A stretch of DNA of 64,000 bases from Minisyncoccota bacterium (GCA_028694995.1 JAQVJU010000001.1:80492-144491), one strand, 5' to 3'; counted from the first letter of the stretch, positions 13,244-61,902 are shown. Notes: generated from the letters alone by a model not told the origin. A program made the numbers and translations.

Positions 13244-13249
13244 TTTATT

Positions 13250-13648: not shown

Positions 13649-13649
13649 A

Positions 13650-14339: not shown

Positions 14340-14350
14340 ATAATACTATT

Positions 14351-16147: not shown

Positions 16148-16157
16148 TTAAATATTA

Positions 16158-16604
16158 ATGACAGAACAAGCACCAAATAAAGAAGGATCTTTAATAGAAC
16201 AACAACCAACAGAACCTGTAGAACAAGAAACCTCTCCTTCCATAGAAGAAAAAACTTCCTCTGAAGAGAAAAAACCAGAAACAAAGCCAAAAGAAAAGAA
16301 GATGGATATTATTATCTTTCTTTTGCTTCTTATCCCTGCTATAATGAAGGATATTATAGAGATAGTTTTAGGCCTAATTCCAGGAATTAATTTTTTTGTC
16401 TGGTTGATAGCTCTTCCTTTTTCCGCTTATATATTATTTATTAGTATTATCACTGGTATAAGAACAAAATTAATCTTAGGTGGTCAATTAATAGATTTAT
16501 TACCTTTGGCTAGCATTCTTCCGATTACCACTGGAACTGTTATCTTTGCTTATTTATCACAAGGGGCTGTTGAAAAGGTTGCTAAAAAATCTTCTAAAAT
16601 ATAA
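16158..16604 (+). CDS. Small polytopic membrane protein with E/K/P-rich N-terminus (T4SS-cluster component)
   Basis: The 148 aa protein has three predicted TM helices after a charged ~45 aa N-terminus. Confidence 0.35.
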   Translation: MTEQAPNKEGSLIEQQPTEPVEQETSPSIEEKTSSEEKKPETKPKEKKMDIIIFLLLLIPAIMKDIIEIVLGLIPGINFFVWLIALPFSAYILFISIITGIRTKLILGGQLIDLLPLASILPITTGTVIFAYLSQGAVEKVAKKSSKI

Positions 16605-16633
16605 AGAATCATTTTAAAAAAATAAATAAAAAC

Positions 16634-17536: not shown

Positions 17537-17544
17537 AACAATAA

Positions 17545-21670: not shown

Positions 21671-21939
21671 TTCCTTGTTGATATTTGGTGAATAAATTGT
21701 GTTTTAAAAGTGAGTCTTCTGTTGTATAAACTAAGTAAATCATTTTCATCTATTTTAACCCACTTTTTATTCTCAAAATATCCAATAGTTTTCAACATTT
21801 TATCCCTATATTAATTCATTAGAAAAGACTTAATAAAAACATTAAAAACATTTATCCCCAAAAAAAACAAGTTCTTAATAATAACAATAATTTATATTAT
21901 ATATTAATTTATTATTAAAAAATTAAAATAATTAAAAAT
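21671..21939. promoter_or_regulatory. Putative oriC (dnaA-dnaN spacer): DnaA boxes plus AT-rich unwinding element
   Basis: TTATCCCTA sits at 21799-21807 and TTATCCCCA at 21852-21860. A nearly pure A/T stretch lies at about 21880-21935. Confidence 0.5.
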
Positions 21940-23076: not shown

Positions 23077-23080
23077 ATCT

Positions 23081-23377
23081 GTGGCTTTTATTCCAATTAA
23101 AAATATTCTAAATTCTTGGTTACAAGCTGATAAATTTAAATCAGTTATTTCTGGACGTCAGGTGGTTAGTTTAGCTAATCAATATTTTAGAGATAATAAA
23201 AAATGGCCTTCTAATGCAATTCGGGCCATTTCTTTTGATAAGGGACGTTTGACTATTCAATGTTTTCAAAATGTTATTTCATCAGAATTACGTTTAGATG
23301 AATTGAATTTCAGAAAATACTTGGAGGAAAAAGTTCCTGGGATTAAAATTAATAAAATTTTCTATAAAATTAAATAG
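23081..23377 (+). CDS. DUF721-family protein (DciA-like helicase-loader candidate)
   Basis: The small protein lies in the dnaN-downstream position typical of DUF721/DciA. The assignment comes from size and context. Confidence 0.4.
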   Translation: MAFIPIKNILNSWLQADKFKSVISGRQVVSLANQYFRDNKKWPSNAIRAISFDKGRLTIQCFQNVISSELRLDELNFRKYLEEKVPGIKINKIFYKIK

Positions 23378-23379
23378 AA

Positions 23380-25878: not shown

Positions 25879-26341
25879 TGAGTTTATTAATACCGGCTAA
25901 GGCCACAGCTAAGGCATCAGCTATATCATCAGGTTTGGGCATTACTTCTAAAGAAAAAAAACATTGAATAGTTTTTTGAACGTCTTTTTTATCTGCCCGG
26001 CCATAACCAATTAAGTTTCGTTTAATTTCTAATGGGGTTAATTCAATGTATGGTAGATGATTTTTTTCAAGAGTTAGAATAATAACACCAATAGCTTCAC
26101 TGACACTCATTACCGTTTTAGCATTTTTAAAAAAGAAAACCTTTTCAATGGCCACTATAGATGGTTGGTGTTCTTTTATGGCTTGATTTAGGTTTTTAGA
26201 TATTTTTAATAGTCTTTGGCCCTGAGTTGTTTTATTTGTTTCCCAACAACCATAATCAATTGGTTTGACATTGTTTTTAGTTGCTTTTAATACAGCCCAA
26301 CCAATACGAGTGGTGCCTGGATCAATGCCTAGGATAATCAT
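25856..26341 (-). CDS. ruvC: Crossover junction endodeoxyribonuclease RuvC
   Basis: It has MIILGIDPGTTRIGWAVL and the conserved acidic residues. Confidence 0.85.
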   Translation of the reverse strand: MIILGIDPGTTRIGWAVLKATKNNVKPIDYGCWETNKTTQGQRLLKISKNLNQAIKEHQPSIVAIEKVFFFKNAKTVMSVSEAIGVIILTLEKNHLPYIELTPLEIKRNLIGYGRADKKDVQKTIQCFFSLEVMPKPDDIADALAVALAGINKLNDSKTKH

Positions 26342-26349
26342 AAATTAAT

Positions 26350-27069
26350 TTATTGTACATTAGAATAAATTTCTTCCACATCATTATGTTCATCTAGTTC
26401 ATTAAATAATTGTTCTAATTTGTTTTTTATTTCAGGGTCAGTAATATTAATTGGTTGTTGGCTGATAAAATCAATTTCAGTTTTAAGAAATTCATCATTT
26501 ACATGTTCTGATAGGAAATTTTTCATCTGGGAGAAATTTTGAAAAGCAGTGTAAACAATTACTTGATTATCTTCTTCCTTAATTTCTTCAGCGCCTTTTT
26601 CTATTGCCGCTAAGGAAATTTCATCATTCCAGAATTTTTTTGGCAGAATAATTTTTCCCATTTCCTTAAATGACCATAAAACACTTCCGGTATCAGCCAT
26701 TTTAGCCTGATTTTTTTGTAAAATATGTTTTATCTTGGCAATAGTGCGGTTTTTATTATTAGTAATAGCTTGAATTAATAAGGCTGAACCTCCGGGAGCA
26801 TAAGCCTCACACATAATTTCTTCTAATTTTTCTCCTTCTTTTGTTTCTCCAGAGCCTCTTTTAATGGCTTTTTCTATATTCTCTTTAGGCATGCCTATTT
26901 CCTTAGCTTTATCAACAGCCATTCTTAATTTTGGATTTGACTCAATATCGCCGCTATCTTTAGCGGCAACAGTTATTAAAGCAGATAACTTAGAAAAAGC
27001 TTTACTCCTTTTTGGATCTTTGGCAGCTTTTTGATATTTTACTTTTGCCCATTTAGAATGTCCAGCCAT
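26350..27069 (-). CDS. YebC/PmpR-family transcriptional regulator
   Basis: It begins MAGHSKWAKVKYQKAAKD and has the family size. Confidence 0.85.
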   Translation of the reverse strand: MAGHSKWAKVKYQKAAKDPKRSKAFSKLSALITVAAKDSGDIESNPKLRMAVDKAKEIGMPKENIEKAIKRGSGETKEGEKLEEIMCEAYAPGGSALLIQAITNNKNRTIAKIKHILQKNQAKMADTGSVLWSFKEMGKIILPKKFWNDEISLAAIEKGAEEIKEEDNQVIVYTAFQNFSQMKNFLSEHVNDEFLKTEIDFISQQPINITDPEIKNKLEQLFNELDEHNDVEEIYSNVQ

Positions 27070-27200
27070 AATAAATAAAAATGAAATATTATTGAATTAA
27101 AATCAGTATATCTCTTTTTGGTGATTTGCGCAATTTATCTAATTTTTAGGGGTTGAAAAAAGCATCATTTTAGCGTAAACTTATAGATATAAGAAAAGAA

Positions 27201-28196
27201 ATGGATTTAGAAAAATTAGCGCAACAAGCTAAAACAAGTATTTCTTTAATAGAAGAATCGTCAGGATTAGAACAATGGCGGATTCAATATTTAGGGAGGA
27301 AAAGCGCCCTTTCTTTATTTTTTAATTCTTTAGCTCAATTATCTCCTGAAGAAAAAAAACATTTAGGAGGAAAAGCTAATAAGATTCATAAGGAATTAGT
27401 ATTATTGTATAAAAATAAAAAGGAAGAAATAGAGAAGAATATTTTTAAAAAAAAGGATAGTTTTCTAGATATTACCCAGCCAGGGGAAAAACAAATCTTA
27501 GGACATTTGCATCCCCTGACTTTAACAGCTAGGGAAATTATTTCTTCATTTGAAAAAATGGGTTTTTCAATTATTGAAGGACCAGAGATAGAAACTGAGT
27601 ATTATAATTTTGATGCTTTGAATATTCCTGAAGATCATCCAGCAAGAGAAATGTGGGATACGCTTTGGATAAAACCAAAAACCATAAAAGAAAAATCAAG
27701 ATTGTTATTAAGAACGCATACTAGTCCGATGCAGATGCGTTATATGGAAAAACATCAACCGCCATTTCGTATTATTGTGCCTGGAAAATGCTTTCGTTAT
27801 GAGGCCACTGATGCTTCTCATGAAATTCAGTTTTTTCAGATAGAAGGATTAATGGTTGGAGAAAATATTACTCTGGCTAATTTTAAGGCGGTTATTAATG
27901 AATTAATGAAAAATATTTTCCAACAAGAAGTTGAAGTGCGTTTTAGACCTAGTTATTTTCCTTTTGTAGCTCCAGGCGTAGAAGTGGATATAAGGTTAAA
28001 AAATGGTGATTGGTTGGAAATTATGGGAGCAGGTATGGTGCACCCTGAATTATTTAAAAAAGCAGGTTATAAAAATAATCAATGGCAAGGATTTGCCTTT
28101 GGTTTAGGAATAGAAAGAATTGCTATGATTAAATACAAAATTAACGATATTAGGTTGTTTTTTAATTCAGATATTAGATTTCTTGAACAATTTTAA
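27201..28196 (+). CDS. pheS: Phenylalanine--tRNA ligase alpha subunit
   Basis: It has class II aaRS motifs (FRYEATDASHEIQFFQIEG, GFAFGLGIERI). Confidence 0.9.
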   Translation: MDLEKLAQQAKTSISLIEESSGLEQWRIQYLGRKSALSLFFNSLAQLSPEEKKHLGGKANKIHKELVLLYKNKKEEIEKNIFKKKDSFLDITQPGEKQILGHLHPLTLTAREIISSFEKMGFSIIEGPEIETEYYNFDALNIPEDHPAREMWDTLWIKPKTIKEKSRLLLRTHTSPMQMRYMEKHQPPFRIIVPGKCFRYEATDASHEIQFFQIEGLMVGENITLANFKAVINELMKNIFQQEVEVRFRPSYFPFVAPGVEVDIRLKNGDWLEIMGAGMVHPELFKKAGYKNNQWQGFAFGLGIERIAMIKYKINDIRLFFNSDIRFLEQF

Positions 28197-28208
28197 AATA
28201 TTCATACA

Positions 28209-30254
28209 ATGAAAGTTTCGTTTAATTGGTTAAAAGATTTATTAAAATTAAAACAAACGCCAAAACAATTGGCAGAGATTTTAACAATGTATTTTGCTGA
28301 AACCACAGTTAAGAGTTTGGGCAAAAGACCAATTTTAGAAGTTGAATTATTATCTAATCAAATTGGTTGGGCTTCTGGTCATCTCAGCTTGGCAAGGGAA
28401 ATAAGTGCTTATTTGAATCAACGTTTTAATTTTCCAGAGCCTGTTTTAAAAGAAGATAAAAAAAATTCAATTAATAATTTATTATCTTTAGATATTCAGA
28501 CAATAAGTTGCAGATATTATTCAGCAAGGGTTTTGCAAGGAGTTAAGGTTAAGGAATCTCCTCAATGGTTAAAACAGAGGTTGCAAGATTGTGGCATTAG
28601 ACCAATCAATAATTTAGTTGATGCCGCTAACTATATTATGTTAGAAACCGGACAGCCTTTGCATGTATTTGATTTTGATACAATTGATTCTCAGAATTCT
28701 AAAAAAAAGATTATTATCAGACAGGCAAAAAACAAAGAAACACTCAATGCCCTTGATGATCAAAAATATCTTTTAAATAAAGAAATGATGGTTATTGCTG
28801 ATAGTAAAACACCCATTGCTTTAGCTGGTATTAAAGGAGGCCAGGAAACAGCTGTTAGTAAAAAAACCCAGAATATCATTTTAGAAAGTGCTAATTTTAG
28901 AGGGAGTAATATTCGTTTAACTTCTAAATCTCTAGGTTTGGCCACAGATGCTTCTTGGAGATTTGAACATGATGTGCCTCTAGAATTAACTTCTTATGCT
29001 CTAGATCGTTTAGCAGAATTAATTCAACAAATAGCCGGAGGTAATATTATAAAAGGAAAGGTAGAAAAAATAAAAGATATTAATAGTTGGCAAAGTGTTA
29101 AAAAGCCCATTTCTATTAAATGGGAAAATTGGGAAAAGTTTTTAGGCTGGTCAATAAAAAAAGAAAGAATATTAAAAAATCTTGATTTATTAGGTTTTTC
29201 ATTTACAAAGCATAAAAACCATCTTTTAGTTATTCAACCTAGGTTTCGTAATGATATCTTAATTAAAGAAGATGTTATGGGAGAGGTAGCGAGGTTAGAG
29301 GGTATTGACTTAATTGAATCTATTTTACCTAAAGAAGAATTAAAATCTCCTATTAGAAATGAATTTTGGTTGTTTCGTGAAAAAATCAAAGACCAATTTA
29401 AAGAATACAAATTAAATGAAATTTACAATTATTCTTTCATTTCCAATAAAGATAAAAATATCTTACCCCAACAATGGCAGCAAAAGATAATTGAAATAGA
29501 AAATCCAACCAGTTCTTTAACTCAATACTTACGATCAACTCTTTTAATTAATCTTCTAAAAAATATTAGAGATAACTTTCGCTTTGTTGATAAGATTAGG
29601 TTTTTTGAATTAGGAAATATTTATTCTTTTAAAAAAGAAGAATATGTTTTTGGTGGAATTTTGGCTCAGAAGACCAAGTTAGATAATAATCAATTATTCT
29701 ATCAAGCTAAAGGAATGATTGAAGATTTATTTGTTAGCCTTGGTATTAATCAGCATGATTGTATTTTTAAAGATTTAAAGAAAACAGAATATGCAGATTT
29801 ATTAGAGCAAGGAGCAGGAATTTTTGTTAATCAAAAGTTTATTGGTGTTTTAGGCAAACCTCAAGAGTTTTTTAAAAAATATTATGATTGTCAAGGAGAA
29901 ACAATGTTTTGGGAAATTGAATTAAAATCTTTGTTTGATTTAGCTAAAAAAGAAAAAGAATTTCAGGCTTTACCTAAATTCCCAGCTGTTATCAGAGATA
30001 TTTCTTTTGTAATTTCAAAAGATATTCTCATTGGTGAGATTTTAAATATTTTACAAAAAACTTCTCCTTCTTTCTTAAAGGAAATAGATTTATTTGATGT
30101 TTATATGGGTAAAAACCTGCCTTTAGAAAGTAAAAGCTTATCTTTTCATCTTATGTTTAGATCATCAAAATACACCTTAACTAATATTGAGGTTGATAAA
30201 GAAATGGAAAAGATTTACAAAACCTTAAAAGATTTAGGCGCGAAAATTAGATAA
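28209..30254 (+). CDS. pheT: Phenylalanine--tRNA ligase beta subunit (short form lacking N-terminal tRNA-binding OB domain)
   Basis: The 681 aa protein is alignable to PheT B3/4, B5 and catalytic-like domains. The EMAP/OB region that normally follows the first ~40 aa is absent. Confidence 0.8.
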   Translation: MKVSFNWLKDLLKLKQTPKQLAEILTMYFAETTVKSLGKRPILEVELLSNQIGWASGHLSLAREISAYLNQRFNFPEPVLKEDKKNSINNLLSLDIQTISCRYYSARVLQGVKVKESPQWLKQRLQDCGIRPINNLVDAANYIMLETGQPLHVFDFDTIDSQNSKKKIIIRQAKNKETLNALDDQKYLLNKEMMVIADSKTPIALAGIKGGQETAVSKKTQNIILESANFRGSNIRLTSKSLGLATDASWRFEHDVPLELTSYALDRLAELIQQIAGGNIIKGKVEKIKDINSWQSVKKPISIKWENWEKFLGWSIKKERILKNLDLLGFSFTKHKNHLLVIQPRFRNDILIKEDVMGEVARLEGIDLIESILPKEELKSPIRNEFWLFREKIKDQFKEYKLNEIYNYSFISNKDKNILPQQWQQKIIEIENPTSSLTQYLRSTLLINLLKNIRDNFRFVDKIRFFELGNIYSFKKEEYVFGGILAQKTKLDNNQLFYQAKGMIEDLFVSLGINQHDCIFKDLKKTEYADLLEQGAGIFVNQKFIGVLGKPQEFFKKYYDCQGETMFWEIELKSLFDLAKKEKEFQALPKFPAVIRDISFVISKDILIGEILNILQKTSPSFLKEIDLFDVYMGKNLPLESKSLSFHLMFRSSKYTLTNIEVDKEMEKIYKTLKDLGAKIR

Positions 30255-30265
30255 ATACTTTAATT

Positions 30266-32353
30266 ATGGTAAAAAAAATAAAACAAAAACCAACAGAAAA
30301 AAAAGAAATCTTAAATGATAACAATTCATATACGGCTAAGGATATTTATGTTTTAGAAGGATTAGATCCAGTTCGGAAAAGACCAGGAATGTATATTGGC
30401 TCCACTGGAGTTGATGGTCTTCATCATTTAATTTGGGAAGTAGTGGATAATAGCATTGATGAAGCAATGGCTGGGTTTGCCAAGAATATTTTAATTGAAA
30501 TCCTAGCAGAAAATGAAGTGGCTATAACTGATGATGGTAGAGGAATTCCAGTTGATACTCATGAAAAAACTAAAAAATCAGCCTTGGAAATTGTTTTAAC
30601 CACTCTTCATGCTGGAGGTAAGTTTGGAGGCAAATCATATAAAGTGGCTGGGGGTTTGCATGGAGTTGGCGTTTCAGTGGTCAATGCTCTTTCAGAACAT
30701 TTACAAGCAGAGATTTGTCGTGAAGGAGCTTTGTATCAACAAGAATACAGTCGGGGGAAAGCAATAACTAAATTAAAAAAAGTAGGTAAATCCAATCAAG
30801 AAGGAACAAAGATTATCTTTAAGCCAGACCCAGAGATTTTTAAAGATATTAAGTTTGATACAAAGAAAATCTTAGATCATTTGCGCCAGCAAGCTTACTT
30901 AACCCCAGGGACAACAATTAGGTTTAAGGATTATCGTGAAGGAACTAAACTCTCTTCTTATACTTTTCATTTTGAAAGTGGAATCATTGCCTTAATAAGA
31001 TACTTGGCCAGAGACTATAAAAGACTAACTAGAAATGTATTTTATGTTAGTCAAGAGAAAGAAAATATTTTAGTAGAAGTAGCCTTAGCTTATATAGATG
31101 ATAATGAAAGCACTGAAGCGTCTTTTGCTAATAATATTTATACGCCTGAAGGAGGGATGCATTTAACTGGTTTTCGCTCAGCCTTAACAAGAAGTTTAAA
31201 TGATTATGCAAAAGAACAAGAGATTTTTAAAAATGGCAATGGTAGTTTTGCAGGAGAAGATACGCGTGAAGGTTTAATAGCAGTAATTAGCGTTAAATTA
31301 CAAGAACCTCAATTTGAAGGTCAAACTAAAGCCAAATTAGGCAATCCAGAGGTAAGAACTGCAGTAGAGCAGATAGTTAGTGAAAGTTTTAAAGAATTCT
31401 TAGAAATTAACAAAGAAGACGCAAAGAGAATTATTGAAAAATCATTATTAAGCGCTAAAGCGCGGGAAGCGGCAAAAAAAGCAAGGGAGAATATTTTAAG
31501 AAAAGGAATTTTAGAAGGAACAACTTTACCTGGAAAATTAGCTGATTGTATTTCCCGTCGAGCTGAAGAATCAGAATTGTTTATTGTTGAAGGAGATAGT
31601 GCTGGGGGCAGCGCTAAGACTGGAAGAGATCGCAATACGCAAGCGATTCTTCCTTTAAGAGGGAAGATTTTGAATATAGAAAAAAGTCGTTTTGATAGGA
31701 TGATGTCTTCAGAAGAAATAAAGTCTTTAATTGTGGCTTTGGGTACAGCCATAAGTGAAGATTTTAATTTGAATAAACTTCGTTATCATAAGGTTGTTAT
31801 TATGACTGACGCAGATTCTGATGGCGCTCATATCAGGACTCTTTTATTAACGCTTTTCTTTAGATATTTTCGTCCGATTATAGATCATGGTTATCTCTAT
31901 ATTGCTCAACCACCTCTTTATCGTATTCAAAAAGGCAAGGAAGTTCATTATGCTTATAATGAAGCAGAAAAACAGGAAGTTTTAGATAAAATTCAAGGCA
32001 AGACAAAGGAAAAAGAAACTTCAAAATCAAAGGTAAGAAAATTGAAATTAGTTTCTGAAAGCAAAGAAGAATCAATTTTAGCTGTAGAAGAGCCAATGCC
32101 TGAATCAAAAACTGATGAGCTTGCTGAATTAAAAGGAATATCAATCCAACGCTACAAAGGTTTGGGAGAAATGAATCCAGATCAATTATGGGAAACAACC
32201 ATGGATCCAGCACAAAGGGTTTTGAAATTAGTCACCATTGAAAATGCTGAAAATGCTGATAGATTGTTTGATATCTTAATGGGTAAAGAAGTTTTACCAC
32301 GTAAGAAATTTATTCAAGCCTATGCTCAGAAAGTTCAAAACTTGGATGTTTAG
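30266..32353 (+). CDS. gyrB: DNA gyrase subunit B
   Basis: It has the GHKL ATPase, the TOPRIM (EGDSAGG, PLRGKILN) and a GyrB C-terminal domain. The origin-proximal position favours GyrB over ParE. Confidence 0.85.
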   Translation: MVKKIKQKPTEKKEILNDNNSYTAKDIYVLEGLDPVRKRPGMYIGSTGVDGLHHLIWEVVDNSIDEAMAGFAKNILIEILAENEVAITDDGRGIPVDTHEKTKKSALEIVLTTLHAGGKFGGKSYKVAGGLHGVGVSVVNALSEHLQAEICREGALYQQEYSRGKAITKLKKVGKSNQEGTKIIFKPDPEIFKDIKFDTKKILDHLRQQAYLTPGTTIRFKDYREGTKLSSYTFHFESGIIALIRYLARDYKRLTRNVFYVSQEKENILVEVALAYIDDNESTEASFANNIYTPEGGMHLTGFRSALTRSLNDYAKEQEIFKNGNGSFAGEDTREGLIAVISVKLQEPQFEGQTKAKLGNPEVRTAVEQIVSESFKEFLEINKEDAKRIIEKSLLSAKAREAAKKARENILRKGILEGTTLPGKLADCISRRAEESELFIVEGDSAGGSAKTGRDRNTQAILPLRGKILNIEKSRFDRMMSSEEIKSLIVALGTAISEDFNLNKLRYHKVVIMTDADSDGAHIRTLLLTLFFRYFRPIIDHGYLYIAQPPLYRIQKGKEVHYAYNEAEKQEVLDKIQGKTKEKETSKSKVRKLKLVSESKEESILAVEEPMPESKTDELAELKGISIQRYKGLGEMNPDQLWETTMDPAQRVLKLVTIENAENADRLFDILMGKEVLPRKKFIQAYAQKVQNLDV

Positions 32354-33069: not shown

Positions 33070-33957
33070 TTAATTTAACGTATCTACAAAAAATACTCGT
33101 TGGCAAAAGGCACTAATCCCTATGCCATTAGTAGCATTAGTTTGTATTCTGTAAGTTGGTACGTTGTTTATATAAATAGTGTATCCTACACCTGAATCTT
33201 TTTTAGCCTCGATTAGATGAGCGATTTTTACTTCTTTTTCTATGGGTTTATAAACAACTGTGCCTTTTGAATTAGCGATAATTACATAAAGATCTTCGTC
33301 TTGAGCATCTAAGATAAAATTTAAAAACTTAGATTTATCTTCTATTGGCAAGTTATTAAAAGCCTTTAAGCATAACTTATTAAGTTTTAATTGGTATTGC
33401 TGGCCATTATTTGTTGCCCATTTTAGTAATTTCTTATTTTCTAGAATCTTTTTCTTTAATTCACTTTGTGATATTTGAGGTTTATCTATATATTTTTTTA
33501 GTTTCTGCCACATTTCTTTATACTCAGGTTCAAAATTTATACCTAAATATTTTTTTAAACTTCTCATTCCTAGATTTTTTATTGTTCCAGTTCCGCTTTG
33601 AGCAATGGATTTTATTGAGAATCTTGTAAATTTATGAGTTATGTGTTCAGTGTCCACGTCCGATGTTGTTTTTATGGTGAGTTTTCTGCCTACCCATAAT
33701 ACCTCAATAATTTTTCCTTTTTTTGATATTTCAAAATCCAAAATATCTTTTAGAATTTTAATTAATTTTAATAAATTATCGTTTTGTAATTTTAATCGTT
33801 CTTCCCCGTTCGGTAATTCAAGAACCTGATTAGATAATAAAGCTAAATTTTTACTATAAACAAATCTAATATTGTAAAGATGGCAAATATACTGAACAAT
33901 TAATAATTCAAAATAATCTGCTTGGGCTCTATTTGATTTAACTTTTCTGTTTTTCAT
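33070..33957 (-). CDS. Putative restriction endonuclease partnered with adjacent MTase
   Basis: The 295 aa protein overlaps the 3' end of the MTase gene by 20 nt (operon). It has a possible PD-(D/E)xK-like D..D.EH..HK segment. There is no confident family match from sequence alone. Confidence 0.35.
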   Translation of the reverse strand: MKNRKVKSNRAQADYFELLIVQYICHLYNIRFVYSKNLALLSNQVLELPNGEERLKLQNDNLLKLIKILKDILDFEISKKGKIIEVLWVGRKLTIKTTSDVDTEHITHKFTRFSIKSIAQSGTGTIKNLGMRSLKKYLGINFEPEYKEMWQKLKKYIDKPQISQSELKKKILENKKLLKWATNNGQQYQLKLNKLCLKAFNNLPIEDKSKFLNFILDAQDEDLYVIIANSKGTVVYKPIEKEVKIAHLIEAKKDSGVGYTIYINNVPTYRIQTNATNGIGISAFCQRVFFVDTLN

Positions 33958-35407
33958 ATTTTTTTATATACTTTATGATTATTTTATTAATACTATTTTG
34001 ATATTTTTTAAAGTCAAAGGCATAATTTTTCTTTAAATTATCAATAATAAATTTCGAAGTTTGGGAAATTTGCTTTAAATCCTTTTTAGAAAATTTTAGC
34101 ATTGGTAATTTCCTAATATCTCTTATTTGAATAGAATTAGTATGGTTTATTATTTTGATTAATTCATTATATGGTTTACTGTTTAATAACCCTATAAAGA
34201 AGTAAACAGGATATTTTCTTGGATTTTTTGGGAAAAAGCACATTGCTTTATTACTTTCCCACATTGCTCCTTTATAGGCTAAACGAGCTGAAAGGCTAGA
34301 GCATACTCCTGATATAATGAACCCCTGTTTTTCTTTATATTGTTCCAACCCATTTAGCATTTTATATTTTTTTATTACTTCTTTGTTCCATTTAATAGCA
34401 TATTTGGGTTTTTTATAATACTTGTTATTTCCACCGGTTTTGTGATATATTTTCCAACCATTTCCTTGTTTTATATTTTGGAACAATACAATATTCTTAT
34501 TTTTTTTATTCAATTGAATATTTTCGTCTTTGTAATCTATTAGTGCTAAATATTGCTTATTATTAGTTGTATGCATACCAAGTCCTCCTTCTAAGAAATC
34601 TACTAATTTTTCATTAGCTGAAGTTAGAACATTTAAGAGGTTAATATTATTTTTAAAGTAGAAAACATAATCTGGGTATTTTAAAATATCTAATTGAGAA
34701 ACCATCCAGATTTTTCCTTTATAGTCACCTAATTCGTTTTTTCTACAATCATTAAATTTAATTTTATGATTTTTAGGAAATTTATTTTTAACCAAATGAA
34801 TAATACTGGTTTGGATCATAGTGCCACTATCTTTAAATAAGGATGGGGGACAAAGGGTAATTTCCTTAATAGTGAAATTATTTAGAATCCAATATCTTAA
34901 TTTTTTATGAATTCCAAGAGTTCTATAGGTATCACTTATTATGAAAACAAGTTCACCATTTTGAGATAAAAGATTGCCACATAAGTAAATAAACATAGCA
35001 TATGTATCGTTAACTCCTATTTCCTTATAGATTTTTTTAAGTTTATTTTTATTGTTTTTAATATATAAGCTTTGTTTATTTAAATAGGGTGGATTTCCAA
35101 TAACATGGGTAAAGATAGGTTGAAATGATGATTTTAGATTTGTTTCTAAAAGTGTGTCTTTTACTGTAAATTTTACGCCTAAGTTTTTAATGTTTTTCTC
35201 TACTTGTAGATTTATGTCCCATACTTCAATTTGCTTAGGTTTTAAGAGTTTTTTATTTAATATAGATTTAATAAAAATTCCATCGCCACCACATGGCTCA
35301 AGAAGTTTAGCTTTTTCATTTAATTTATTAAATAAGCTAATCATATAACTTGCTGTGTGGGCAGGAGTATAAAATGCACCCAAATCTTTTTTTAATTGTT
35401 TATTCAT
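33938..35407 (-). CDS. N6-adenine-specific DNA methyltransferase (gamma-class, TaqI/Eco57I-like)
   Basis: It has N-terminal DLGAFYTPAHTASYM (the FxTP motif) and a catalytic NPPY (VIGNPPYLNKQS). Confidence 0.8.
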   Translation of the reverse strand: MNKQLKKDLGAFYTPAHTASYMISLFNKLNEKAKLLEPCGGDGIFIKSILNKKLLKPKQIEVWDINLQVEKNIKNLGVKFTVKDTLLETNLKSSFQPIFTHVIGNPPYLNKQSLYIKNNKNKLKKIYKEIGVNDTYAMFIYLCGNLLSQNGELVFIISDTYRTLGIHKKLRYWILNNFTIKEITLCPPSLFKDSGTMIQTSIIHLVKNKFPKNHKIKFNDCRKNELGDYKGKIWMVSQLDILKYPDYVFYFKNNINLLNVLTSANEKLVDFLEGGLGMHTTNNKQYLALIDYKDENIQLNKKNKNIVLFQNIKQGNGWKIYHKTGGNNKYYKKPKYAIKWNKEVIKKYKMLNGLEQYKEKQGFIISGVCSSLSARLAYKGAMWESNKAMCFFPKNPRKYPVYFFIGLLNSKPYNELIKIINHTNSIQIRDIRKLPMLKFSKKDLKQISQTSKFIIDNLKKNYAFDFKKYQNSINKIIIKYIKKYEKQKS

Positions 35408-50094: not shown

Positions 50095-50538
50095 ATGTAT
50101 TTAAATAAAGTTTTCATTATTGGAAATTTAACTCGGGATGTTGATCTTCGAACCACTCCTTCAGGGCGCTCAGTGGCTAATTTTGGAGTGGCAACTAATC
50201 GGGTTTGGAATGATGCTAATGGGCAAAGACAACAGGAAACAGAATTTCATAATGTGGTTGTTTGGGGGAAAATGGCTGAGCTTTGTAATCAATATCTTGC
50301 AAAAGGGCGGTCAGTGTTAGTAGAGGGGAGAATAAGAACAAGAAGTTGGGTTGATTCAAATGAGCAAAAAAGGACCAGGACAGAGATTGTGGCTGAGAAT
50401 GTTAGATTTGGTCCAAGGAGAGTGCAAGAAGAAGATCAATTTAAAATGCCTCCAGAGCAACCAGAGGCAGGAATTGAAGATTTGCCAGTTTTAGAAGAAG
50501 ATTCAGGAGAAATTATGTCTGATGATATTCCTTTTTAA
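50095..50538 (+). CDS. ssb: Single-stranded DNA-binding protein
   Basis: It has the OB fold ([29 protein letters not shown]) and the acidic tail DDIPF. Confidence 0.9.
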
Positions 50539-51562
50539 ACGCTTGTATAATATCTTTTAATCCTTCTCCGCTTAAAACTTCATCTATATGATGCCATGAT
50601 TTTTTTAAGCGGTGGTCAGTAATACGATCTTGAGGAAAGTTATAGGTACGTATTTTTTCACTTCTTTCGGCGCTGCCTATTTGGTCGCGCCTTTCTTTTT
50701 TTGCCTTACCAATCAATTCTTCTTCCTGAAGGTCATATAATTTATTTTTTAAAATCTCAAGGGCTTTTTCCCTGTTTTGGTTTTGATGCCTTTCACTTTG
50801 ACAGGCAACAAAGATGCCAGTAGGTTTATGAAAAAGACGAACAGCAGTCTCTACTTTATTGACATTCTGACCGCCAGGACCAGAAGATCTAAAAAAGGTT
50901 TCTTCAATTTCTTCTGGTTTAATTGTTATCTCAATATTTTTCATTTGGGGTAAGATAGCCACAGTAGCTGTGGAAGTATGGATTCGTCCTGATTTTTCTG
51001 TAATGGGGACTCTTTGCACTCGATGAACCCCAGCTTCTTGTTTTAATTCATTAAAAGATTCTTTGCTGTCTATTTCTAAAATACCCTCTTTTAAGCCCCC
51101 AAGAGAGGTTTTGCTAATATCAATTACTTTTATTGGCCAACCTTGGATATTAGCATAGCGACTATACATTGTGAATAAATCTAAGGCAAATAAACCTGCT
51201 TCTTCACCTCCAGTGCCAGCTCTAATTTCAAGAATAATACTTTTAATATTATTTAAATCATTGCTTGAGGTCTGTTCGGTTTGTAATTTTTGAGATAAAG
51301 ATTCTTTTAAATCTGTGTTTTTCTGCAATTCTTCCTTAGCTAAGGTCAAGAGTTCATTATCAGTTTCTTCTGCTAAGATCTCTTCTGCTTCTTTTATCTT
51401 TTTTTCTGCTCGCGCTATCTCTTTTTGAGTATTAAGTTCTTTTTCAATTTTTTTTAATTCACGAGAAGCTTGTTCAAATTTTGTTTTATCAGAAAGAAAC
51501 TCAGGGTCACTGAGTTTCTTTAAAAGTTCTTCTTTTTTCTTTTGTAATTCATTCAAATTCAT
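50513..51562 (-). CDS. prfA: Peptide chain release factor 1
   Basis: It has GGQ ([16 protein letters not shown]) and the RF1-type tripeptide region [16 protein letters not shown] (PxT). It is full length at 349 aa. Confidence 0.9.
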
Positions 51563-51852
51563 TTGGTTTCTTTTTTGGTTTTGGATTTTCGGCGTGATTC
51601 TTTGTCTTTTTTGACTTTTTTCTTAGGGGATTTTTTAACAGCTAAGGTTTCTGTCTTTTCAAGACGTTTTTTAAATTTTTGCACTTGTCCTGTAGTGTCA
51701 ACTAATTTTTTTTGTCCAGTATAAAAAGGATGACACTGAGAACAGATTTCCACTTCTATTTTTTCTGTTGTTGCCCCCACAGTAAACTCAGCGCCGCAAG
51801 TGCAAGTTGCTTTTGCTTTGTTATAATATGGGGGATGAATGTTCTTTTTCAT
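51559..51852 (-). CDS. rpmE: 50S ribosomal protein L31 with K-rich C-terminal tail
   Basis: It begins [10 protein letters not shown] and has a CxxC...CxxC zinc ribbon. Confidence 0.85.
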
Positions 51853-54597: not shown

Positions 54598-55527
54598 ATG
54601 GAAAATATTATTGAAGTTAAACAATTAAAGAAAGATTTTGATGGTTTTGATGCAGTGAATAATATTACCTTTAATGTGAAAAAAGGTGAGGTTTTTGGTT
54701 TGTTAGGACCTAATGGAGCTGGCAAAACCACAACCATAAGAATGTTAATAGGAATATTAAAACCAACTCAAGGTGAGGTTTTTATAAAAGAATACAATGT
54801 TAGGAAAGAACCAATTAAAGTAAAGCAAATAATGGGAATTGTTCCTGAATTTGCTGATGCTTATACAGATTTATCTGCTTTGAGAAATCTTTTATTAACT
54901 GGAGAATTATATGGAATAGAAAGAAAGAAAAGTATTCAAAAAGCTATATCTTTATTAAAAAAGTTTGAATTATATGAAAAAAGACATCAAAAAGTAAAAA
55001 CTTTTTCAAAAGGAATGAGGCAGAGATTGATTTTAGCCATGGCCTTAATGAATGATGCAGAAATTTTGTTTTTAGATGAACCCACCTCTGGATTAGATGT
55101 AGAAAGTACAAGATTAATCAGGCAACTTATTAGAAAATTTAACAAAGATGGGGTTACTATTTTTCTTACTACTCATAATATAGAAGAAGCAGATTTACTT
55201 TGTGACCGAGTGGCCATAATGAATCAAGGGAAAATTATAGCTATTGATCGCCCTGAATTATTAAAAAACATTATGAAAAAGATTTCTTCTATAGAAGTGG
55301 CTTTTAAAAAAGATTTAAAGGAGGAAGATTTGTATTTTAAGGGAGTTGAAAAGGTTAATAAGATGGGGGATAAATTTCGTATATTTGGTGAAAAAACATT
55401 AGAGATTATTCTCTCTTTAATAAAATATTCTAGAAAATCTGAAAATGAAATCATTTCTTTAAGAATGATAGAGCCAAGTTTAGAAGATATTTTTGTAAAA
55501 TTAACAAATAAAAATGAAAATCCTTGA
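54598..55527 (+). CDS. ABC transporter ATP-binding protein (ABC-2/export type)
   Basis: It has Walker A GPNGAGKTT, the signature SKGMRQRL and Walker B LFLDEPTSGLD. Confidence 0.85.
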   Translation: MENIIEVKQLKKDFDGFDAVNNITFNVKKGEVFGLLGPNGAGKTTTIRMLIGILKPTQGEVFIKEYNVRKEPIKVKQIMGIVPEFADAYTDLSALRNLLLTGELYGIERKKSIQKAISLLKKFELYEKRHQKVKTFSKGMRQRLILAMALMNDAEILFLDEPTSGLDVESTRLIRQLIRKFNKDGVTIFLTTHNIEEADLLCDRVAIMNQGKIIAIDRPELLKNIMKKISSIEVAFKKDLKEEDLYFKGVEKVNKMGDKFRIFGEKTLEIILSLIKYSRKSENEIISLRMIEPSLEDIFVKLTNKNENP

Positions 55528-57734: not shown

Positions 57735-58271
57735 GTGAAAAAAGACAAGGAAAAAGAATTGCTTGATAAGACAGAAGTGTATGAAAGGAATATAAAAAAG
57801 ATTAAAAGCCATAGTTCTCTAGAAAGTGCTTACATAATTTTCCCTTATAATCAAAAAGAGCTTTTAGTGCCAGATAAGGATTTTTGGCTTGATATTACAA
57901 ACAAGATGAGCTTAAGGGATTTAATTATTTGCTCTCCAAATGCTTTGATAAATAGTCAACCAGAGATTGTCGAAAATCAATGTTTGATTACTGCAAATGA
58001 ATTTACTTTTAAATATTGGGAAGAAGTAAAGACTTACTTAATGATTGCAGGAATTACTAACTTGATAATTATTAGTTCTGATATACATCTTCCCAGGATT
58101 TTACGAGATTTTTCCTTTGTGTTTAAGAATAAAAGAGAAAATTTGCATGTGGGAATTAAAACAATCAGGATTGCAAATTCTTTTTGGAAAATGGTTTATA
58201 AGATTAGAGAGAGAATTGTTGCCTTACTTCCATTAAATTTTTATAAATATTTAGGAGAAGAAAGGATGTAG
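57735..58271 (+). CDS. DUF218 (YdcF/SanA/ElyC)-like domain protein
   Basis: ISSDIHLPRI resembles the DUF218 S..HM.RA motif. It has a GTG start with RBS AAGGAGGTGA. Confidence 0.35.
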   Translation: MKKDKEKELLDKTEVYERNIKKIKSHSSLESAYIIFPYNQKELLVPDKDFWLDITNKMSLRDLIICSPNALINSQPEIVENQCLITANEFTFKYWEEVKTYLMIAGITNLIIISSDIHLPRILRDFSFVFKNKRENLHVGIKTIRIANSFWKMVYKIRERIVALLPLNFYKYLGEERM

Positions 58272-58273
58272 AG

Positions 58274-58672
58274 ATGTTAAAGAATCATTTGGAAAGAAAT
58301 ATATTGAGAAATCGGCCGTATTTTGGAGGGCTAGAAAGTGATCAGGTTAGAAATATTCCTGATCTAAATCACTGCGACGAGGGAGAATGTATTCTAACTT
58401 TTAATATCCATTCAGGGGTAGGTGGATTATTTAAAGTTATTAGTTGTCCGTTTAAGGGTCAAGATGGTTATTGGCGTATTTTCTTAGAGGAACAAGGTCC
58501 TTATTGCAGAGTGCATGACATTCAAGTTAGATTAGATGAATATAGTGTAGTTTGTTATCCCAACCTTGAGTGGGAAAAAGAGTGGTGTTTTTTAAAAACA
58601 AGCATTACTGCTTTCAAAGAATTAAAGAAATTAAGAATACACAGGGAAGATTATCTTCCAGTGTATTATTAA
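58274..58672 (+). CDS. Cys-rich hypothetical protein (132 aa)
   Basis: It has HCDEGEC, ISCPF, PYCRVHD and VVCYP. It is translationally coupled to the upstream gene. Confidence 0.35.
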   Translation: MLKNHLERNILRNRPYFGGLESDQVRNIPDLNHCDEGECILTFNIHSGVGGLFKVISCPFKGQDGYWRIFLEEQGPYCRVHDIQVRLDEYSVVCYPNLEWEKEWCFLKTSITAFKELKKLRIHREDYLPVYY

Positions 58673-58753: not shown

Positions 58754-59437
58754 ATGTCTTCTCAGCAAGAATTGATTCAAGAAACAATTGATCTTGGTTA
58801 TTTAAAATCTCCTCAGATTATAGAGGCTTTTTTAGCTATAGACCGAAAAGATTTTGTTATTCCTGAAAACCAAAATGAAGCTTATTTAAACACTCCTTTA
58901 TCAATAGGTTTTAGTCAAACAATTTCTCAGCCTTTAACAGTTGCTTTTATGTTGGAATTGTTACAACCCAAGATTGGGGATGTGGTTTTGGATATTGGTT
59001 CTGGCTCTGGGTGGACTAGTGCCTTGCTTTCATATTTAGTAAGTGATGGCGGAAAGAATAAACAAGGAAAGGTAATTGCTATTGAAAGAATTTTAGAATT
59101 AAAAGAATTTGGTGAGAAAAATACAGCAAAATACAATTTTGTGGAGAAAAATATTATAAAATTTTTTTGTGCTGATGGTTCTAGGGATATATTAAAAATC
59201 AGTCAACAGCTTGATTTAAAAGAAGGATTTGATAAAATTCTTTGCTCAGCAACATTAGAACAAATGCCTCAAGAATGGATAGATTTATTAAAGACAGGAG
59301 GAAAAATTGTTGCTCCTTTTCCTGGAGAAATTCAGCTCTGGGTTAAACAAGATAAAAATACTTTTAAAAAAGAATTTTTTAAGGGATTTAGTTTTGTGCC
59401 TTTGATTTCTGATGATAAAGAATCCAGTTGTTTTTAA
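58754..59437 (+). CDS. pcm: Protein-L-isoaspartate O-methyltransferase
   Basis: It has the SAM motif VLDIGSGSGWTSALL and a C-terminal FVPL. Confidence 0.85.
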   Translation: MSSQQELIQETIDLGYLKSPQIIEAFLAIDRKDFVIPENQNEAYLNTPLSIGFSQTISQPLTVAFMLELLQPKIGDVVLDIGSGSGWTSALLSYLVSDGGKNKQGKVIAIERILELKEFGEKNTAKYNFVEKNIIKFFCADGSRDILKISQQLDLKEGFDKILCSATLEQMPQEWIDLLKTGGKIVAPFPGEIQLWVKQDKNTFKKEFFKGFSFVPLISDDKESSCF

Positions 59438-59459
59438 ATGTTAAATTTGCTAAAATTTT

Positions 59460-60215
59460 ATGGTGTTGAATATTAATAAAGATAAATACAGTATTCCTTT
59501 TGATTCTCGCAATATTACTTTATCAGTTTATGCAGGTGCTGGTGGTCGTGATGCTGAAGATTGGGCATTGATGTTACTGCGGATGTATCAAAGATATGCG
59601 GAAAAGAAAGGATGGAAATTCATTTTATTAGATAAGAAAGAAAATGAATTTGGCGGCATTAAACATGCAATAGTAGAGATCATAGGAAAGAATATTTATC
59701 AGATTTTTAAAAATGAAAATGGAGTGCATCGTTTAGTAAGAATTTCTCCTTTTTCTGCAGCAAAATTACGTCATACATCATTTGCCTTAATTGAAGTTTT
59801 ACCAATGATAGAAGCTAAGGAATTACCTTTGGATGAAAATGATTTAGAAATTGAGACTTTTCGTTCTTCAGGTCCAGGTGGGCAAAATGTTAATAAGGTG
59901 GAAACGGCTGTTAGGATTACTCATAAACCAACAGGAATAGTTGCTAGTTGTCAGGCAGAAAGATTGCAATCAAGGAATAAAGAAAAGGCAATGGCAATTT
60001 TAAGAACTAAATTGCATCAATTAGCTGAACAAGAAAAAGTAAAAACTTTAGCTGAATTAAAAGGCAAAAAAATCAAAATTGAATGGGGGAGTCAGATTCG
60101 TTCTTATGTTCTTCATCCATATAAAATTATCAGAGATGAAAAAACTGGTAAAAAATGGTCTAATATAGTAGAAGATGTATTAGCAGGTAATTTAGATTTA
60201 ATCTATAATATTTAA
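59460..60215 (+). CDS. prfB: Peptide chain release factor 2, N-terminally truncated (domains 2-4 only)
   Basis: It has the SPF tripeptide (VRISPFSAAKLRHTSF) and GGQ ([19 protein letters not shown]). At 251 aa it aligns to RF2 residues ~110 to the end. There is no room upstream for domain 1 or a frameshift site. Confidence 0.8.
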   Translation: MVLNINKDKYSIPFDSRNITLSVYAGAGGRDAEDWALMLLRMYQRYAEKKGWKFILLDKKENEFGGIKHAIVEIIGKNIYQIFKNENGVHRLVRISPFSAAKLRHTSFALIEVLPMIEAKELPLDENDLEIETFRSSGPGGQNVNKVETAVRITHKPTGIVASCQAERLQSRNKEKAMAILRTKLHQLAEQEKVKTLAELKGKKIKIEWGSQIRSYVLHPYKIIRDEKTGKKWSNIVEDVLAGNLDLIYNI

Positions 60216-60218
60216 TTT

Positions 60219-60902
60219 ATGTCCTTGGTTTATTTCAAAAATGTTTCTAAAGCTTATAACGGATCTTTAATTTTAGACAATGTTAGTTTTAAGATAGAGC
60301 CAGGTGAGTTTGTGTCTTTGGTTGGCAGGTCAGGAGTAGGGAAAACAACTCTTTTAAAAATGTTAATTAAAGAAGAGGCGCCTACTAAAGGGAGAATCTT
60401 TTTTAATGAAAAGGATATTAATAAAATTAAGCCAACTGAGGTAACATTATTGCGTCGTAAGATAGGAATGGTTTTTCAGGATTTTAAGCTTCTAACTCAA
60501 AAAACAGCATATGAAAATGTGGCTTTTGCTATGGAAGTGGCTGGTTATCCTGAAAATATGATTAAAAAAGATGCGCCTGAATTATTAAAATTAGTAAATC
60601 TAGAAAGCAGAGCTAATAATTTTCCTTTTCAGCTTTCTGCTGGAGAAAAACAAAGAGTGGTTATTGCTCGGGTTCTTGCTCAAAGACCAGAATTGATTTT
60701 GGCTGATGAGCCAACTGGAGATTTAGACCCAATTAATACCTGGGAGATAATAAAGCTTATCACTAAGATAAATGAATTAGGCACAGCAATCATTTTAGCT
60801 ACACACAATAAAGAAGTCATCAATACTTTAAATAAAAGAGTGATTAGCATAGATAGTGGTAAAATCATTCGGGATGAAGAAGAAGGGAGATATCTAATTT
60901 AA
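60219..60902 (+). CDS. ftsE: Cell division ATP-binding protein FtsE
   Basis: It has Walker A GRSGVGKTTL, the signature LSAGEKQRV and Walker B LILADEPTGDLD. Confidence 0.85.
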   Translation: MSLVYFKNVSKAYNGSLILDNVSFKIEPGEFVSLVGRSGVGKTTLLKMLIKEEAPTKGRIFFNEKDINKIKPTEVTLLRRKIGMVFQDFKLLTQKTAYENVAFAMEVAGYPENMIKKDAPELLKLVNLESRANNFPFQLSAGEKQRVVIARVLAQRPELILADEPTGDLDPINTWEIIKLITKINELGTAIILATHNKEVINTLNKRVISIDSGKIIRDEEEGRYLI

Positions 60903-60915
60903 TAATTTTTTAATT

Positions 60916-61824
60916 ATGTTTGTAATCTTAAAAAGAATTTTTCGCACTGCCTGGCAAGGTTTAATTAGAAACAATTGGCTTTCTATTGCTTGTATTTCAA
61001 TGTTGACAATAAGCTTGATGATCTTAGGATCAATTTTAATCTTTAATAATGTTAGCCATAATTTAATTGATGTTTTAGAAGAGAAAATGGATGTGAGTAT
61101 TTATTTTAATCGAGAAGTGCCTGAAGAAGATATTTTAAAAATTAGAAATGAACTTATTGGTAATGATAAGATTGCTAAAATTGAATATGTTTCTCAAGAG
61201 GAAGCTTTAAAAAGATTTGAAGAAAAAAGCAGTCAGAATCAAACCATTATGAAAGCTTTAGAAGAATTGGGAGAAAATCCTTTAGTGGCTTTTTTAAGTA
61301 TTAAAGCTAAAGATACATCTTATTATTCAGAAATTATTGAAGAAGTTAATAATTCTTCTTTTAAAGATAAATTAATGACTGTGGGTTTAGCGGAAAATCA
61401 GAGAGTAATTGAAAGAATTAATGCTTTGTCTAAAGGAATAAAATTTGGTTCTTTCTTTATTATTATCATTGCTACTATTTTGAGTGTTTTAATTAGTTTT
61501 AATACAATTAGAATGGCAATTTATTCTTTAAGAGGAGAGATAGAGATAATGAAATTAGTTGGGGCTTCTAATTGGTTTATCAGAGGGCCATTTCTTTTAG
61601 AAGGAGCAATTTATGGATTAACTGCTAGTGTTTTAGCTATAGTTATTTTCATGCCTTTGGTAATATGGATAAGTCCAAAATTAGAAACTTTTGTTTCAGA
61701 AATTAGCATTAGTTCATATTTTTGGTCACATTTTTGGTTTATTTTTGGTATTCAGACTTTATTTGGTATTGGTTTAGGAATGATTGCAGGTTTTTGGGCA
61801 ATGAATAAATACTTAAAAGCATAA
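60916..61824 (+). CDS. ftsX: Cell division permease FtsX
   Basis: It has four TM helices with a large first periplasmic loop and follows ftsE. Confidence 0.8.
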   Translation: MFVILKRIFRTAWQGLIRNNWLSIACISMLTISLMILGSILIFNNVSHNLIDVLEEKMDVSIYFNREVPEEDILKIRNELIGNDKIAKIEYVSQEEALKRFEEKSSQNQTIMKALEELGENPLVAFLSIKAKDTSYYSEIIEEVNNSSFKDKLMTVGLAENQRVIERINALSKGIKFGSFFIIIIATILSVLISFNTIRMAIYSLRGEIEIMKLVGASNWFIRGPFLLEGAIYGLTASVLAIVIFMPLVIWISPKLETFVSEISISSYFWSHFWFIFGIQTLFGIGLGMIAGFWAMNKYLKA

Positions 61825-61828
61825 AGAT

Positions 61829-61902
61829 TGCGGGGTGGTGTAAAGGTAGCACGTCTCCCTTTGGAGGAGAAGATCGGGGTTCGAGTCCCTGCCCCGCAGC
61901 CA
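61829..61902 (+). tRNA. tRNA-Gln (anticodon UUG), CCA encoded
   Basis: TGCGGGGTGGTGTAAAGGTAGCACGTCTCCCTTTGGAGGAGAAGATCGGGGTTCGAGTCCCTGCCCCGCAGCCA has an anticodon stem TCTCC/GGAGA and a loop CTTTGGA. Confidence 0.7.

Follow-up and report, generated by a model that had tools for sequence, protein, structure and literature searches.

A release factor 2 without domain 1 encoded in the pcm-prfB-ftsE-ftsX cluster of a Minisyncoccota bacterium

The prfB locus

The subject of this work is a short gene for release factor 2 (RF2), prfB, on a 64,000-nucleotide stretch of DNA from a Minisyncoccota bacterium, an ultrasmall member of the Patescibacteria (GCA_028694995.1 JAQVJU010000001.1:80492-144491), the whole of which is referred to here as the window and in which positions are counted from the first letter. 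The gene encodes a protein of 251 amino acids (aa) made up of domains 2, 3 and 4 only, and it stands in a cluster with pcm, ftsE and ftsX in which the genes are separated by gaps of 22, 3 and 13 nt. Examined by computation, it is an intact and orthologous prfB that has lost domain 1 through a deletion at its own locus, that remains under purifying selection, and whose short form is shared across a large clade of Parcubacteria/Paceibacteria. The features of the locus are as follows.

57735-58271: orf178 (178 aa), without Pfam match, upstream of pcm
58274-58672: orf132 (132 aa), without Pfam match, upstream of pcm
58754..59437, + strand: pcm, protein-L-isoaspartate O-methyltransferase (Pfam PCMT, E 7e-40), the upstream neighbour of prfB
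59428..59459, + strand: 3' end of pcm, pcm stop codon and 22-nt spacer with a promoter-like element
59460..60215, + strand: prfB, short form, a 251-aa RF2 with domains 2, 3 and 4 only
59745..59753, + strand: SPF codons (residues 96-98), as read from the sequence; this tripeptide 'anticodon' specifies U(A/G)A
59877..59885, + strand: GGQ codons (residues 140-142), as read from the sequence; the motif serves the hydrolysis of peptidyl-tRNA
60219..60902, + strand: ftsE (Pfam ABC_tran), starting 3 nt after the prfB stop
60916..61824, + strand: ftsX (Pfam FtsX_ECD and FtsX), the protein gene that ends the cluster
61829-61902: tRNA-Gln, after ftsX

An earlier description of this DNA, made from its letters without database searches (the sequence-only reading), had placed a 251-aa prfB open reading frame (ORF) at 59460..60215, beginning 22 nt after pcm on the same strand, aligning to RF2 from about residue 110 and carrying both SPF and GGQ, and all of this is borne out. 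The pcm gene ends at 59437 and the prfB ATG lies at 59460; the NCBIfam prfB model (TIGR00020) matches the protein with 326.9 bits over profile positions 112-346 of 353, and solved RF2 chains align with it end to end from residue ~115-119 to ~355 at ~44-45% identity. The N-terminus of the short protein coincides with the boundary between domains 1 and 2 (E. coli residue ~110), with the Pfam PCRF profile being matched at positions 96-193 of 194 only and the RF-1 domain being complete. Rival family models score lower, with 217-218 bits for prfA, 98.6 for prfH and 51.1 for arfB, the last through a match confined to residues ~120-154 (~35 residues), so that prfB is the best model. The protein is also not release factor 1 (RF1), as it has SPF instead of PxT and the prfA model falls 110 bits under that of prfB.

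The decoding and catalytic motifs are strongly conserved. Over 50 aligned homologs there are 55 invariant columns, including GVHRLVR, S96, F98, GGQ, RHTSF and IRSY, and every one of them is kept in the query. Within the SPF region (residues 94-108, RISPFSAAKLRHTSF) S96 and F98 never vary and at least 90% of these sequences have P97, while the GGQ region (residues 137-146) and the SGPGGQNV block are invariant. The C-terminal helix in the query clade is ~6-8 residues shorter than in canonical RF2. Cluster representatives at 50% identity (the best being 58% identical and 348 aa long) are uninformative on the short form, because longer RF2s stand for those clusters.

Domains 2-4 are predicted to be intact. 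The AlphaFold2 model, calculated with a 50-sequence alignment, has a mean predicted local distance difference test score (pLDDT) of 82 and a predicted TM-score (pTM) of 0.71, and is poorly defined at residues 1-11 and 204-209 only. Its best Foldseek match in the Protein Data Bank is free RF2 from T. thermophilus, 2IHR, with a query TM-score (TMq) of 0.85 and a root-mean-square deviation (rmsd) of 2.7 A over 238 columns; E. coli 1GQE comes next, with a TMq of 0.83. Ribosome-bound, extended RF2 chains match by sequence and show a large rmsd to the model, as expected from the compact-to-open transition.

Absence of domain 1 and of the frameshift site

The sequence-only reading had also held that domain 1 and the usual +1 frameshift autoregulatory site are absent, and both claims are upheld. 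A hidden Markov model (HMM) of domain 1, built from 14 full-length RF2 sequences, was run on six frames of the 64-kb window, of 80 loci from species of the GTDB and of five 17-21-kb contexts. Its match in the window was the N-terminus of prfA alone, and a weak one (E 2.8e-4), and tblastn of the N-termini of six full-length RF2s from the candidate phyla radiation (CPR) against the window gave nothing significant, so that neither method finds a separate ORF for domain 1 there. Upstream of the short prfB there is no ORF0, no CTTTGA-type shift site and no domain-1 coding capacity, and the frame is closed by an in-frame TAA (59451-59453) that precedes the ATG by three codons. Among the 18 GTDB species with the short form, the HMM found no match in any frame within +-3 kb, and likewise none near the short prfB in the ~20-kb contexts of relatives L081, L082 and L087. 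In all 18 species an upstream in-frame stop occurs 0-53 codons before the aligned region, mostly 0-3, and there is therefore no room for domain 1.

The length of a database entry is not by itself diagnostic of a truncated RF2, because frameshift miscalls mimic short entries. Two entries that had been candidates for independent short forms, P0086 (249 aa) and P0089 (255 aa), were dropped from the count as miscalled frameshifted full-length genes. P0089 is an internal-start call: at L084:3706-4768 the called start comes only after an ORF0 (MEKEISEKLKNLEVTIRRMADWL, followed by a stop) and a CTT TGA C at 3772. The miscall was verified directly for P0089 only and is probable for many entries of 275-345 aa. 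The query clade is unlike these entries, as it has neither physical room nor any signal upstream.

Orthology and origin

The order prfB-ftsE-ftsX is kept throughout the short clade (L001-L017), in a class of mid-length RF2 genes described below, and at full-length loci of other Patescibacteria (L019, L020 from Portnoybacteria, L033, L036, and L043/L044/L051/L054/L055/L064 from Saccharimonadia). In L084 the arrangement is that of the window itself, with pcm followed by a full-length prfB with a CTT TGA C +1 frameshift and then by ftsE-ftsX, and shift sites of the CTTTGA type are found in the relatives L019, L020, L029 and L084. The conserved locus, together with L084, identifies the short gene as the ortholog of a frameshift-regulated ancestor, and the short gene thus arose by an in-locus deletion of ~108 codons at the domain 1/2 boundary. 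In more distant genomes of the short clade the upstream neighbour of prfB differs, and the deletion is therefore not tied to pcm.

Lineage distribution and selection

How widely is the short form distributed? In the protein database the top ~80 clusters, at 64-97% identity, are all of 234-258 aa and come from metagenome-assembled genomes (MAGs) labelled Paceibacterota, Parcubacteria or Minisyncoccia, and the scan of GTDB species genomes gave 18 species with the short form (L001-L018). The sequence-only reading had offered a lineage-specific minimal RF2 or a degenerating gene, and had noted that a length shared by homologs would make the gene lineage-typical. The closest homologs do share this length, and do so at the ancestral prfB-ftsEX locus, so the short RF2 characterises a large Parcubacteria/Paceibacteria clade and is no peculiarity of this genome, and the truncation falls at the same clean domain boundary in ~100 sequences.

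One ortholog, L007, is 97% identical and lies on a 328-kb contig of MAG STE_68. The ratio of nonsynonymous to synonymous substitution rates (dN/dS) for the short prfB is 0.075 against L007 (29 nt differences), 0.06 against L001 and 0.11 against L006. Protein identities to L007 are 97% for prfB, 99% for ftsE, 98% for ftsX, 92% for pcm and 65-82% for two unannotated ORFs. These values, with the 55 invariant columns, demonstrate strong purifying selection, and the short prfB is no accident of assembly or annotation. Of the two options of the sequence-only reading, the minimal RF2 therefore stands, and the degenerating gene is contradicted by the dN/dS values of 0.06-0.11, by the retention of all invariant columns and by the intact predicted fold.

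Stop codons and the RF1 partner

The window has a GC content of 30.7%, and its 65 non-overlapping ORFs end in TAA (55), TAG (6) or TGA (4). In the flanks of the short-clade loci 12 of 113 ORFs (11%) stop at TGA at a GC of 32%, with 14% in the mid-length class (GC 40%) and 18% in full-length Patescibacteria (GC 52%). The TGA fraction was considered as a correlate of the truncation and set aside, as it tracks GC across the three classes and is inseparable from composition. Long, conserved genes of the window (dnaA, gyrB, pheT, ftsK and the gene for a class A penicillin-binding protein, PBP) are uninterrupted by in-frame TGA, which shows that UGA terminates translation here and does not encode an amino acid. 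Of the four TGA stops in the window, three are placed where a gene briefly overlaps the beginning of the one after it. At two of these sites, among them rpmE/prfA, the overlap is ATGA, and the other overlaps with a TGA stop are at 12206-12209 and 55514-55527. The genes at the RF1 locus are the following.

51559..51852, - strand: rpmE (L31; Pfam Ribosomal_L31), upstream of prfA, with an ATGA overlap and a TGA stop
50513..51562, - strand: prfA (RF1 with domain 1), 349 aa, PCRF 2-194/194 plus RF-1, PIT motif

As rpmE ends in TGA, the gene just upstream of that for RF1 terminates at an RF2-specific codon. The prfA gene is full length, as the sequence-only reading had stated, and the best 120 homologs of the window RF1 are all of 344-357 aa. 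For several relatives of the window-type RF1 the longest contig is equal in bp to that of a short-RF2 cluster (327,676, 533,161, 28,602 and 21,134), and L081 and L082 carry a full-length RF1 gene and a short RF2 gene directly. From the RF1 lengths, the shared contig sizes and these two contexts, the lineage of the window appears to pair a full RF1 with a short RF2. The ribosomal protein L11 of the relative L081 keeps both of its domains.

Domain-1 reduction elsewhere in Parcubacteria

The reduction of domain 1 is not confined to the clade of the window. A second short-RF2 clade, S2 (Yanofskybacteria-like; bootstrap 100), was verified in two contigs, L083, where an opposite-strand ftsH lies 110 nt upstream of the short prfB, and L087, where a tRNA gene lies upstream. 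A mid clade (Zambryski- and Campbellbacteria-like; bootstrap 99) has an RF2 of ~285 aa, at the N-terminus of which a ~45-residue remnant of domain 1 (M..E.Q.KI.ELE..M..PDFWSD..KAQ..IKE...LK), corresponding to one helix pair with a PDFWSD motif, is fused to domain 2, with no shift site. The trees were distance-based (unweighted pair group method with arithmetic mean, UPGMA, and neighbour-joining, NJ, with bootstrap) and recover the clades S1 and S2 (100%), mid (99%) and full-length (94%); the UPGMA and NJ trees do not resolve the branching order among these four. The mid-length genes, and the long-contig contexts of a short RF1 considered next, are listed here.

L021, L026, L030, L042, L050, L053, L057, L059: mid-length RF2 loci, with the start ~100-130 nt upstream of the match start
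L085:10001-10726 and L086:10001-10738: short RF1 in long-contig contexts, in agreement with L058

Judged from their translations, the frames upstream of the mid-clade genes look tRNA-like.

A domain-1-less RF1 of 241 aa, with an RVPSTEK motif and an intact GGQ, is encoded at L058:2986-3711 (+) in a Paceibacterota MAG, right after rpmE. The best 120 database relatives of this protein (L058/P0121) are 71-77% identical and 237-286 aa long, nearly all 237-253, and are labelled Zambryski-, Jorgensen-, Lipton-, Brenner- and Colwellbacteria. The loss of domain 1 therefore affects RF1 too, in other Parcubacteria lineages. No RF2 gene was found within 10 kb of the short RF1 in L085 and L086, and no RF1 gene within 10 kb of the S2 short RF2 in L083 and L087. 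A search for compensatory changes gave six clade-specific positions only, of which a change from E to K at residue 232 is the sole one common to both short clades. At this residue (codon 60153-60155) Lys occurs in 99-100% of the sequences in both short clades and Glu in 97-100% of full- and mid-length RF2.

Expression and the start codon

The 3' end of pcm and the spacer that follows it contain a promoter-like element with TTGTTT at 59428-33, 17 nt, TG at 59448-9 and TAAAAT at 59451-56, in which the TAA of the -10-like hexamer is also the in-frame stop that closes the prfB frame. In its general form, TTGTyT-17 nt-TGyTAAnAT, the element ends 3 nt before the prfB ATG, and it is kept in L001, L002, L005, L006 and L007, even where it is non-coding. 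This conservation suggests, as a hypothesis only, that an extended -10 promoter lies within the cluster and gives a near-leaderless prfB-ftsEX message. A scan of the cluster for sigma-70 and terminator consensus sequences gave nothing above shuffled expectation and did not call the element. In general prfB is probably expressed from the tightly packed pcm-prfB-ftsE-ftsX cluster. The second codon of the gene (GTG 59463) is ATG in four relatives and is the sole ATG in L002 and L005, and for this reason the true start of prfB may be GTG 59463.

Alternative explanations

Could the gene be full length after all, with its N-terminus in another frame through a +1 frameshift or an indel, or lost through misassembly of the pcm-prfB junction? 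Such cases do exist in the family, as P0086, P0089 and many of the 275-345 aa calls attest, along with the 360-nt 'intergenic' region of L084, which encodes ORF0 and domain 1, and L047, a long-read MAG with a split domain 1. In the window, the 22-nt gap from the pcm stop to the ATG and the TAA three codons upstream leave no such space, the domain-1 HMM is silent here as well as in 18 independent species genomes and in several metagenome contigs of different projects, and the junction sequence itself is conserved across relatives, so that this explanation is effectively refuted. It is also very improbable that another protein performs the function of domain 1 in trans. Candidates would be a small helical protein encoded elsewhere or the neighbours orf178 and orf132, which are conserved beside pcm-prfB in the closest relatives and lack Pfam matches. 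Neither of the two has HMM or tblastn similarity to domain 1, and both are absent from the distant short-RF2 loci L004, L008, L013-L017, L083 and L087. In the closest relatives, the only ones that have them upstream of pcm-prfB, they are 35-82% identical.

The short protein might also be a paralog, a rescue or atypical-signal factor like PrfH or ArfB, with the housekeeping RF2 encoded elsewhere or UGA handled otherwise. PrfH likewise lacks domain 1, according to PMC1586002 and PMC6514570, and, the comparison having spanned the window and the loci, a second prfB elsewhere is conceivable. We nevertheless give this explanation little credence, since the gene occupies the ancestral prfB-ftsEX (and pcm-prfB) site that in relatives holds the full-length frameshifted prfB, SPF and the surrounding decoding loop are those of canonical RF2 where PrfH has an altered loop, and the prfH score lies below that model's cut-off of 166.65 bits. 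The window cluster and L081 lack a neighbouring gene for RtcB, and the full-length RF2s nearest to the query form a clade of their own, in other genomes and with the same synteny. Among the 80 GTDB-species loci no two come from one assembly as judged by accession prefix, this being a pattern-based and weak scan. The remaining alternative is a gene en route to the loss of RF2, with UGA termination becoming dispensable. RF2 has been lost and UGA reassigned in Gracilibacteria and Absconditabacteria (both CPR) and in Mollicutes, few ORFs end in UGA (6% in the window, 11% in relatives), and the autoregulatory frameshift is gone. Against this stand the low dN/dS, the identity of prfB to L007, which is close to that of ftsE and ftsX and above that of pcm, the invariance of catalytic and decoding motifs across a clade that diverges to 64% identity, the single clean boundary in ~100 sequences and the persistence of UGA stops, and a gene in decay is accordingly a still fainter prospect than either a paralog or provision in trans.

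The proposed mode of termination

The explanation that we consider very probable is that this is a genuine orthologous prfB, reduced by an ancestral in-locus deletion of ~108 codons to a lineage-typical minimal RF2 for UGA and UAA, without the domain that interacts with RF3 and the L11 stalk and without frameshift autoregulation. From the results above we infer release activity, codon specificity, independence of RF3 and the mode of expression. The deletion removed the helical domain 1 together with the UGA +1 frameshift site at codon ~25, leaving the domain 2/4 decoding superdomain with its SPF loop and domain 3 with GGQ. The short RF2 would bind to the ribosomal A site, read UGA and UAA and, with the GGQ swinging into the peptidyl-transferase centre, release the peptide. 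With domain 1 gone, there would be no docking on the L11/L7-L12 stalk through this domain and no recycling by RF3, and the factor would leave the ribosome spontaneously. Its synthesis would no longer be tuned by RF2-dependent frameshifting and would proceed from the pcm-prfB-ftsE-ftsX cluster, in which prfB may have an extended -10 promoter to itself.

That domain 1 contacts RF3 and the L7/L12-L11 stalk, as the sequence-only reading had assumed, agrees with what PMC1586002 and PMC6514570 state, the latter describing domain 1 as the GTPase (RF3)-interacting module. The work of Mora et al. (2003), as cited in PMC1586002, found domain 1 to be unnecessary for codon-specific release in vitro and required for stimulating nucleotide exchange on RF3. 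Given that domain 1 is on this account (PMC1586002) dispensable for release and required for RF3 exchange, RF3-independent termination with spontaneous release of the factor is the most likely mode. PMC1586002 also mentions that orthologs of prfC had not been identified in small genomes. It holds, as does a referee comment printed with it, that the truncated factors function in vivo, and the comment adds that growth was slow with both of them.

Several points weigh against this explanation. A further referee comment in PMC1586002 holds that in E. coli RF2 seemed to depend on domain 1 more than RF1 did, which makes the loss of domain 1 from RF2 with retention in RF1 less expected. The 326.9 bits of the short RF2 fall below the curated TIGR00020 cut-off of 370, because profile positions 1-111, the first third of the model, are unmatched, and the homologs carry the NCBI label 'PCRF domain-containing protein' only. 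The short prfB has no recognisable Shine-Dalgarno sequence, and its start may be either ATG 59460 or GTG 59463. The short RF2 is known here from its sequence and a predicted structure, and the survey covers the window and the loci, so that prfC, a domain 1 encoded in trans or another, full-length prfB could lie elsewhere.

Comparison with known release factors

With canonical RF2 (TIGR00020; 1GQE, 2IHR) the short form shares the family, the orthologous locus, SPF and GGQ, the prfB-ftsEX linkage of other Patescibacteria, an identity of 44-45% to solved RF2s in domains 2-4 and TM values of 0.83-0.85 to the free forms. It differs in the absence of domain 1 (~108 residues), of the +1 frameshift site and of ~6-8 residues of the C-terminal helix, and in scoring below the family cut-off. 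The +1 frameshift of RF2 genes, at an in-frame UGA near codon 26, is common and not universal. The E. coli RF1 and RF2 that were engineered to lack domain 1 (Mora, Zavialov, Ehrenberg and Buckingham 2003, Mol Microbiol 50:1467, cited in PMC1586002) have the same architecture, but those were made artificially and reportedly slowed growth, whereas here the truncation occurs naturally, has become fixed in a large clade and is maintained by purifying selection.

The absence of domain 1 is the sole resemblance to PrfH/RFH (TIGR03072), which is marked by an altered decoding loop, pairing with RtcB and a sporadic spread by horizontal transfer, whereas the short RF2 has a canonical SPF, an upstream gene that is pcm and not that for RtcB, a far higher score for prfB than for prfH (326.9 vs 98.6 bits) and the prfB locus. 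ArfB (YaeJ), ICT1 and C12orf65 have the GGQ catalytic domain in common with it, but lack the codon-recognition domains 2/4, which the short RF2 possesses, and use a basic C-terminal tail. The domain-1-less RF1 of other Parcubacteria shows the same clean N-terminal domain deletion in the same phylum, at the rpmE-prfA locus; it is the other paralog, with a PxT-type motif for UAA/UAG, and occurs in other lineages, the RF1 of the window lineage being full length.

In the literature searched, as far as the sources were accessible, no description was found of a domain-1-less RF2 or RF1 in Patescibacteria, and a search on prfC/RF3 in Patescibacteria found nothing. The sequences of the short RF2 are already public under generic names, and the protein is ordinary for its lineage and of interest for the biology of translation termination. 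Truncations made in the laboratory indicate that domain 1 is dispensable for catalysis and costly to lose for growth, and its clade-wide absence shows that a minimal release factor is viable in nature. These are thus natural proteins of which to ask what domain 1 contributes, how class-I factors are recycled without RF3 and what substitutes for the near-universal UGA-frameshift feedback of prfB. There is a practical side as well. Because the TIGR00020 cut-off demotes the genes to 'PCRF domain-containing protein', pipelines for marker genes, completeness or genetic codes may miscount RF2 in Patescibacteria, and conversely real full-length frameshifted RF2 genes are often miscalled as short.

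More broadly, we see an even chance that in Parcubacteria/Paceibacteria (Minisyncoccota) class-I release factors have repeatedly shed domain 1 in a group that terminates translation without RF3 recycling and, for RF2, without frameshift autoregulation, which may be a stage toward loss of RF2 and UGA reassignment as in other CPR lineages. The distribution that this proposal builds on is directly observed, with RF2 lacking domain 1 in this clade and in a second, Yanofskybacteria-like one, RF2 reduced to a ~45-residue mini-domain in Zambryski- and Campbellbacteria-like genomes, and RF1 lacking domain 1 in many other candidate phyla. If the proposal is true, the group offers a natural model of minimal, RF3-independent termination.

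Other features of the window

The genes dnaA (20300-21670) and gyrB (30266-32353) lie in the region 20300-32353, and their presence places the window near the chromosomal replication origin. The window also contains pheT, the class A PBP gene (23380-25878, -) and a gene for an Eco57I-type N6 methylase (33938-35407, -). A cluster at 9822-18405 encodes a TraG/VirB4-like P-loop ATPase (14351-16147) and a 795-aa protein without Pfam match, and may represent a type IV secretion or DNA-uptake-like system of the kind reported for Patescibacteria.

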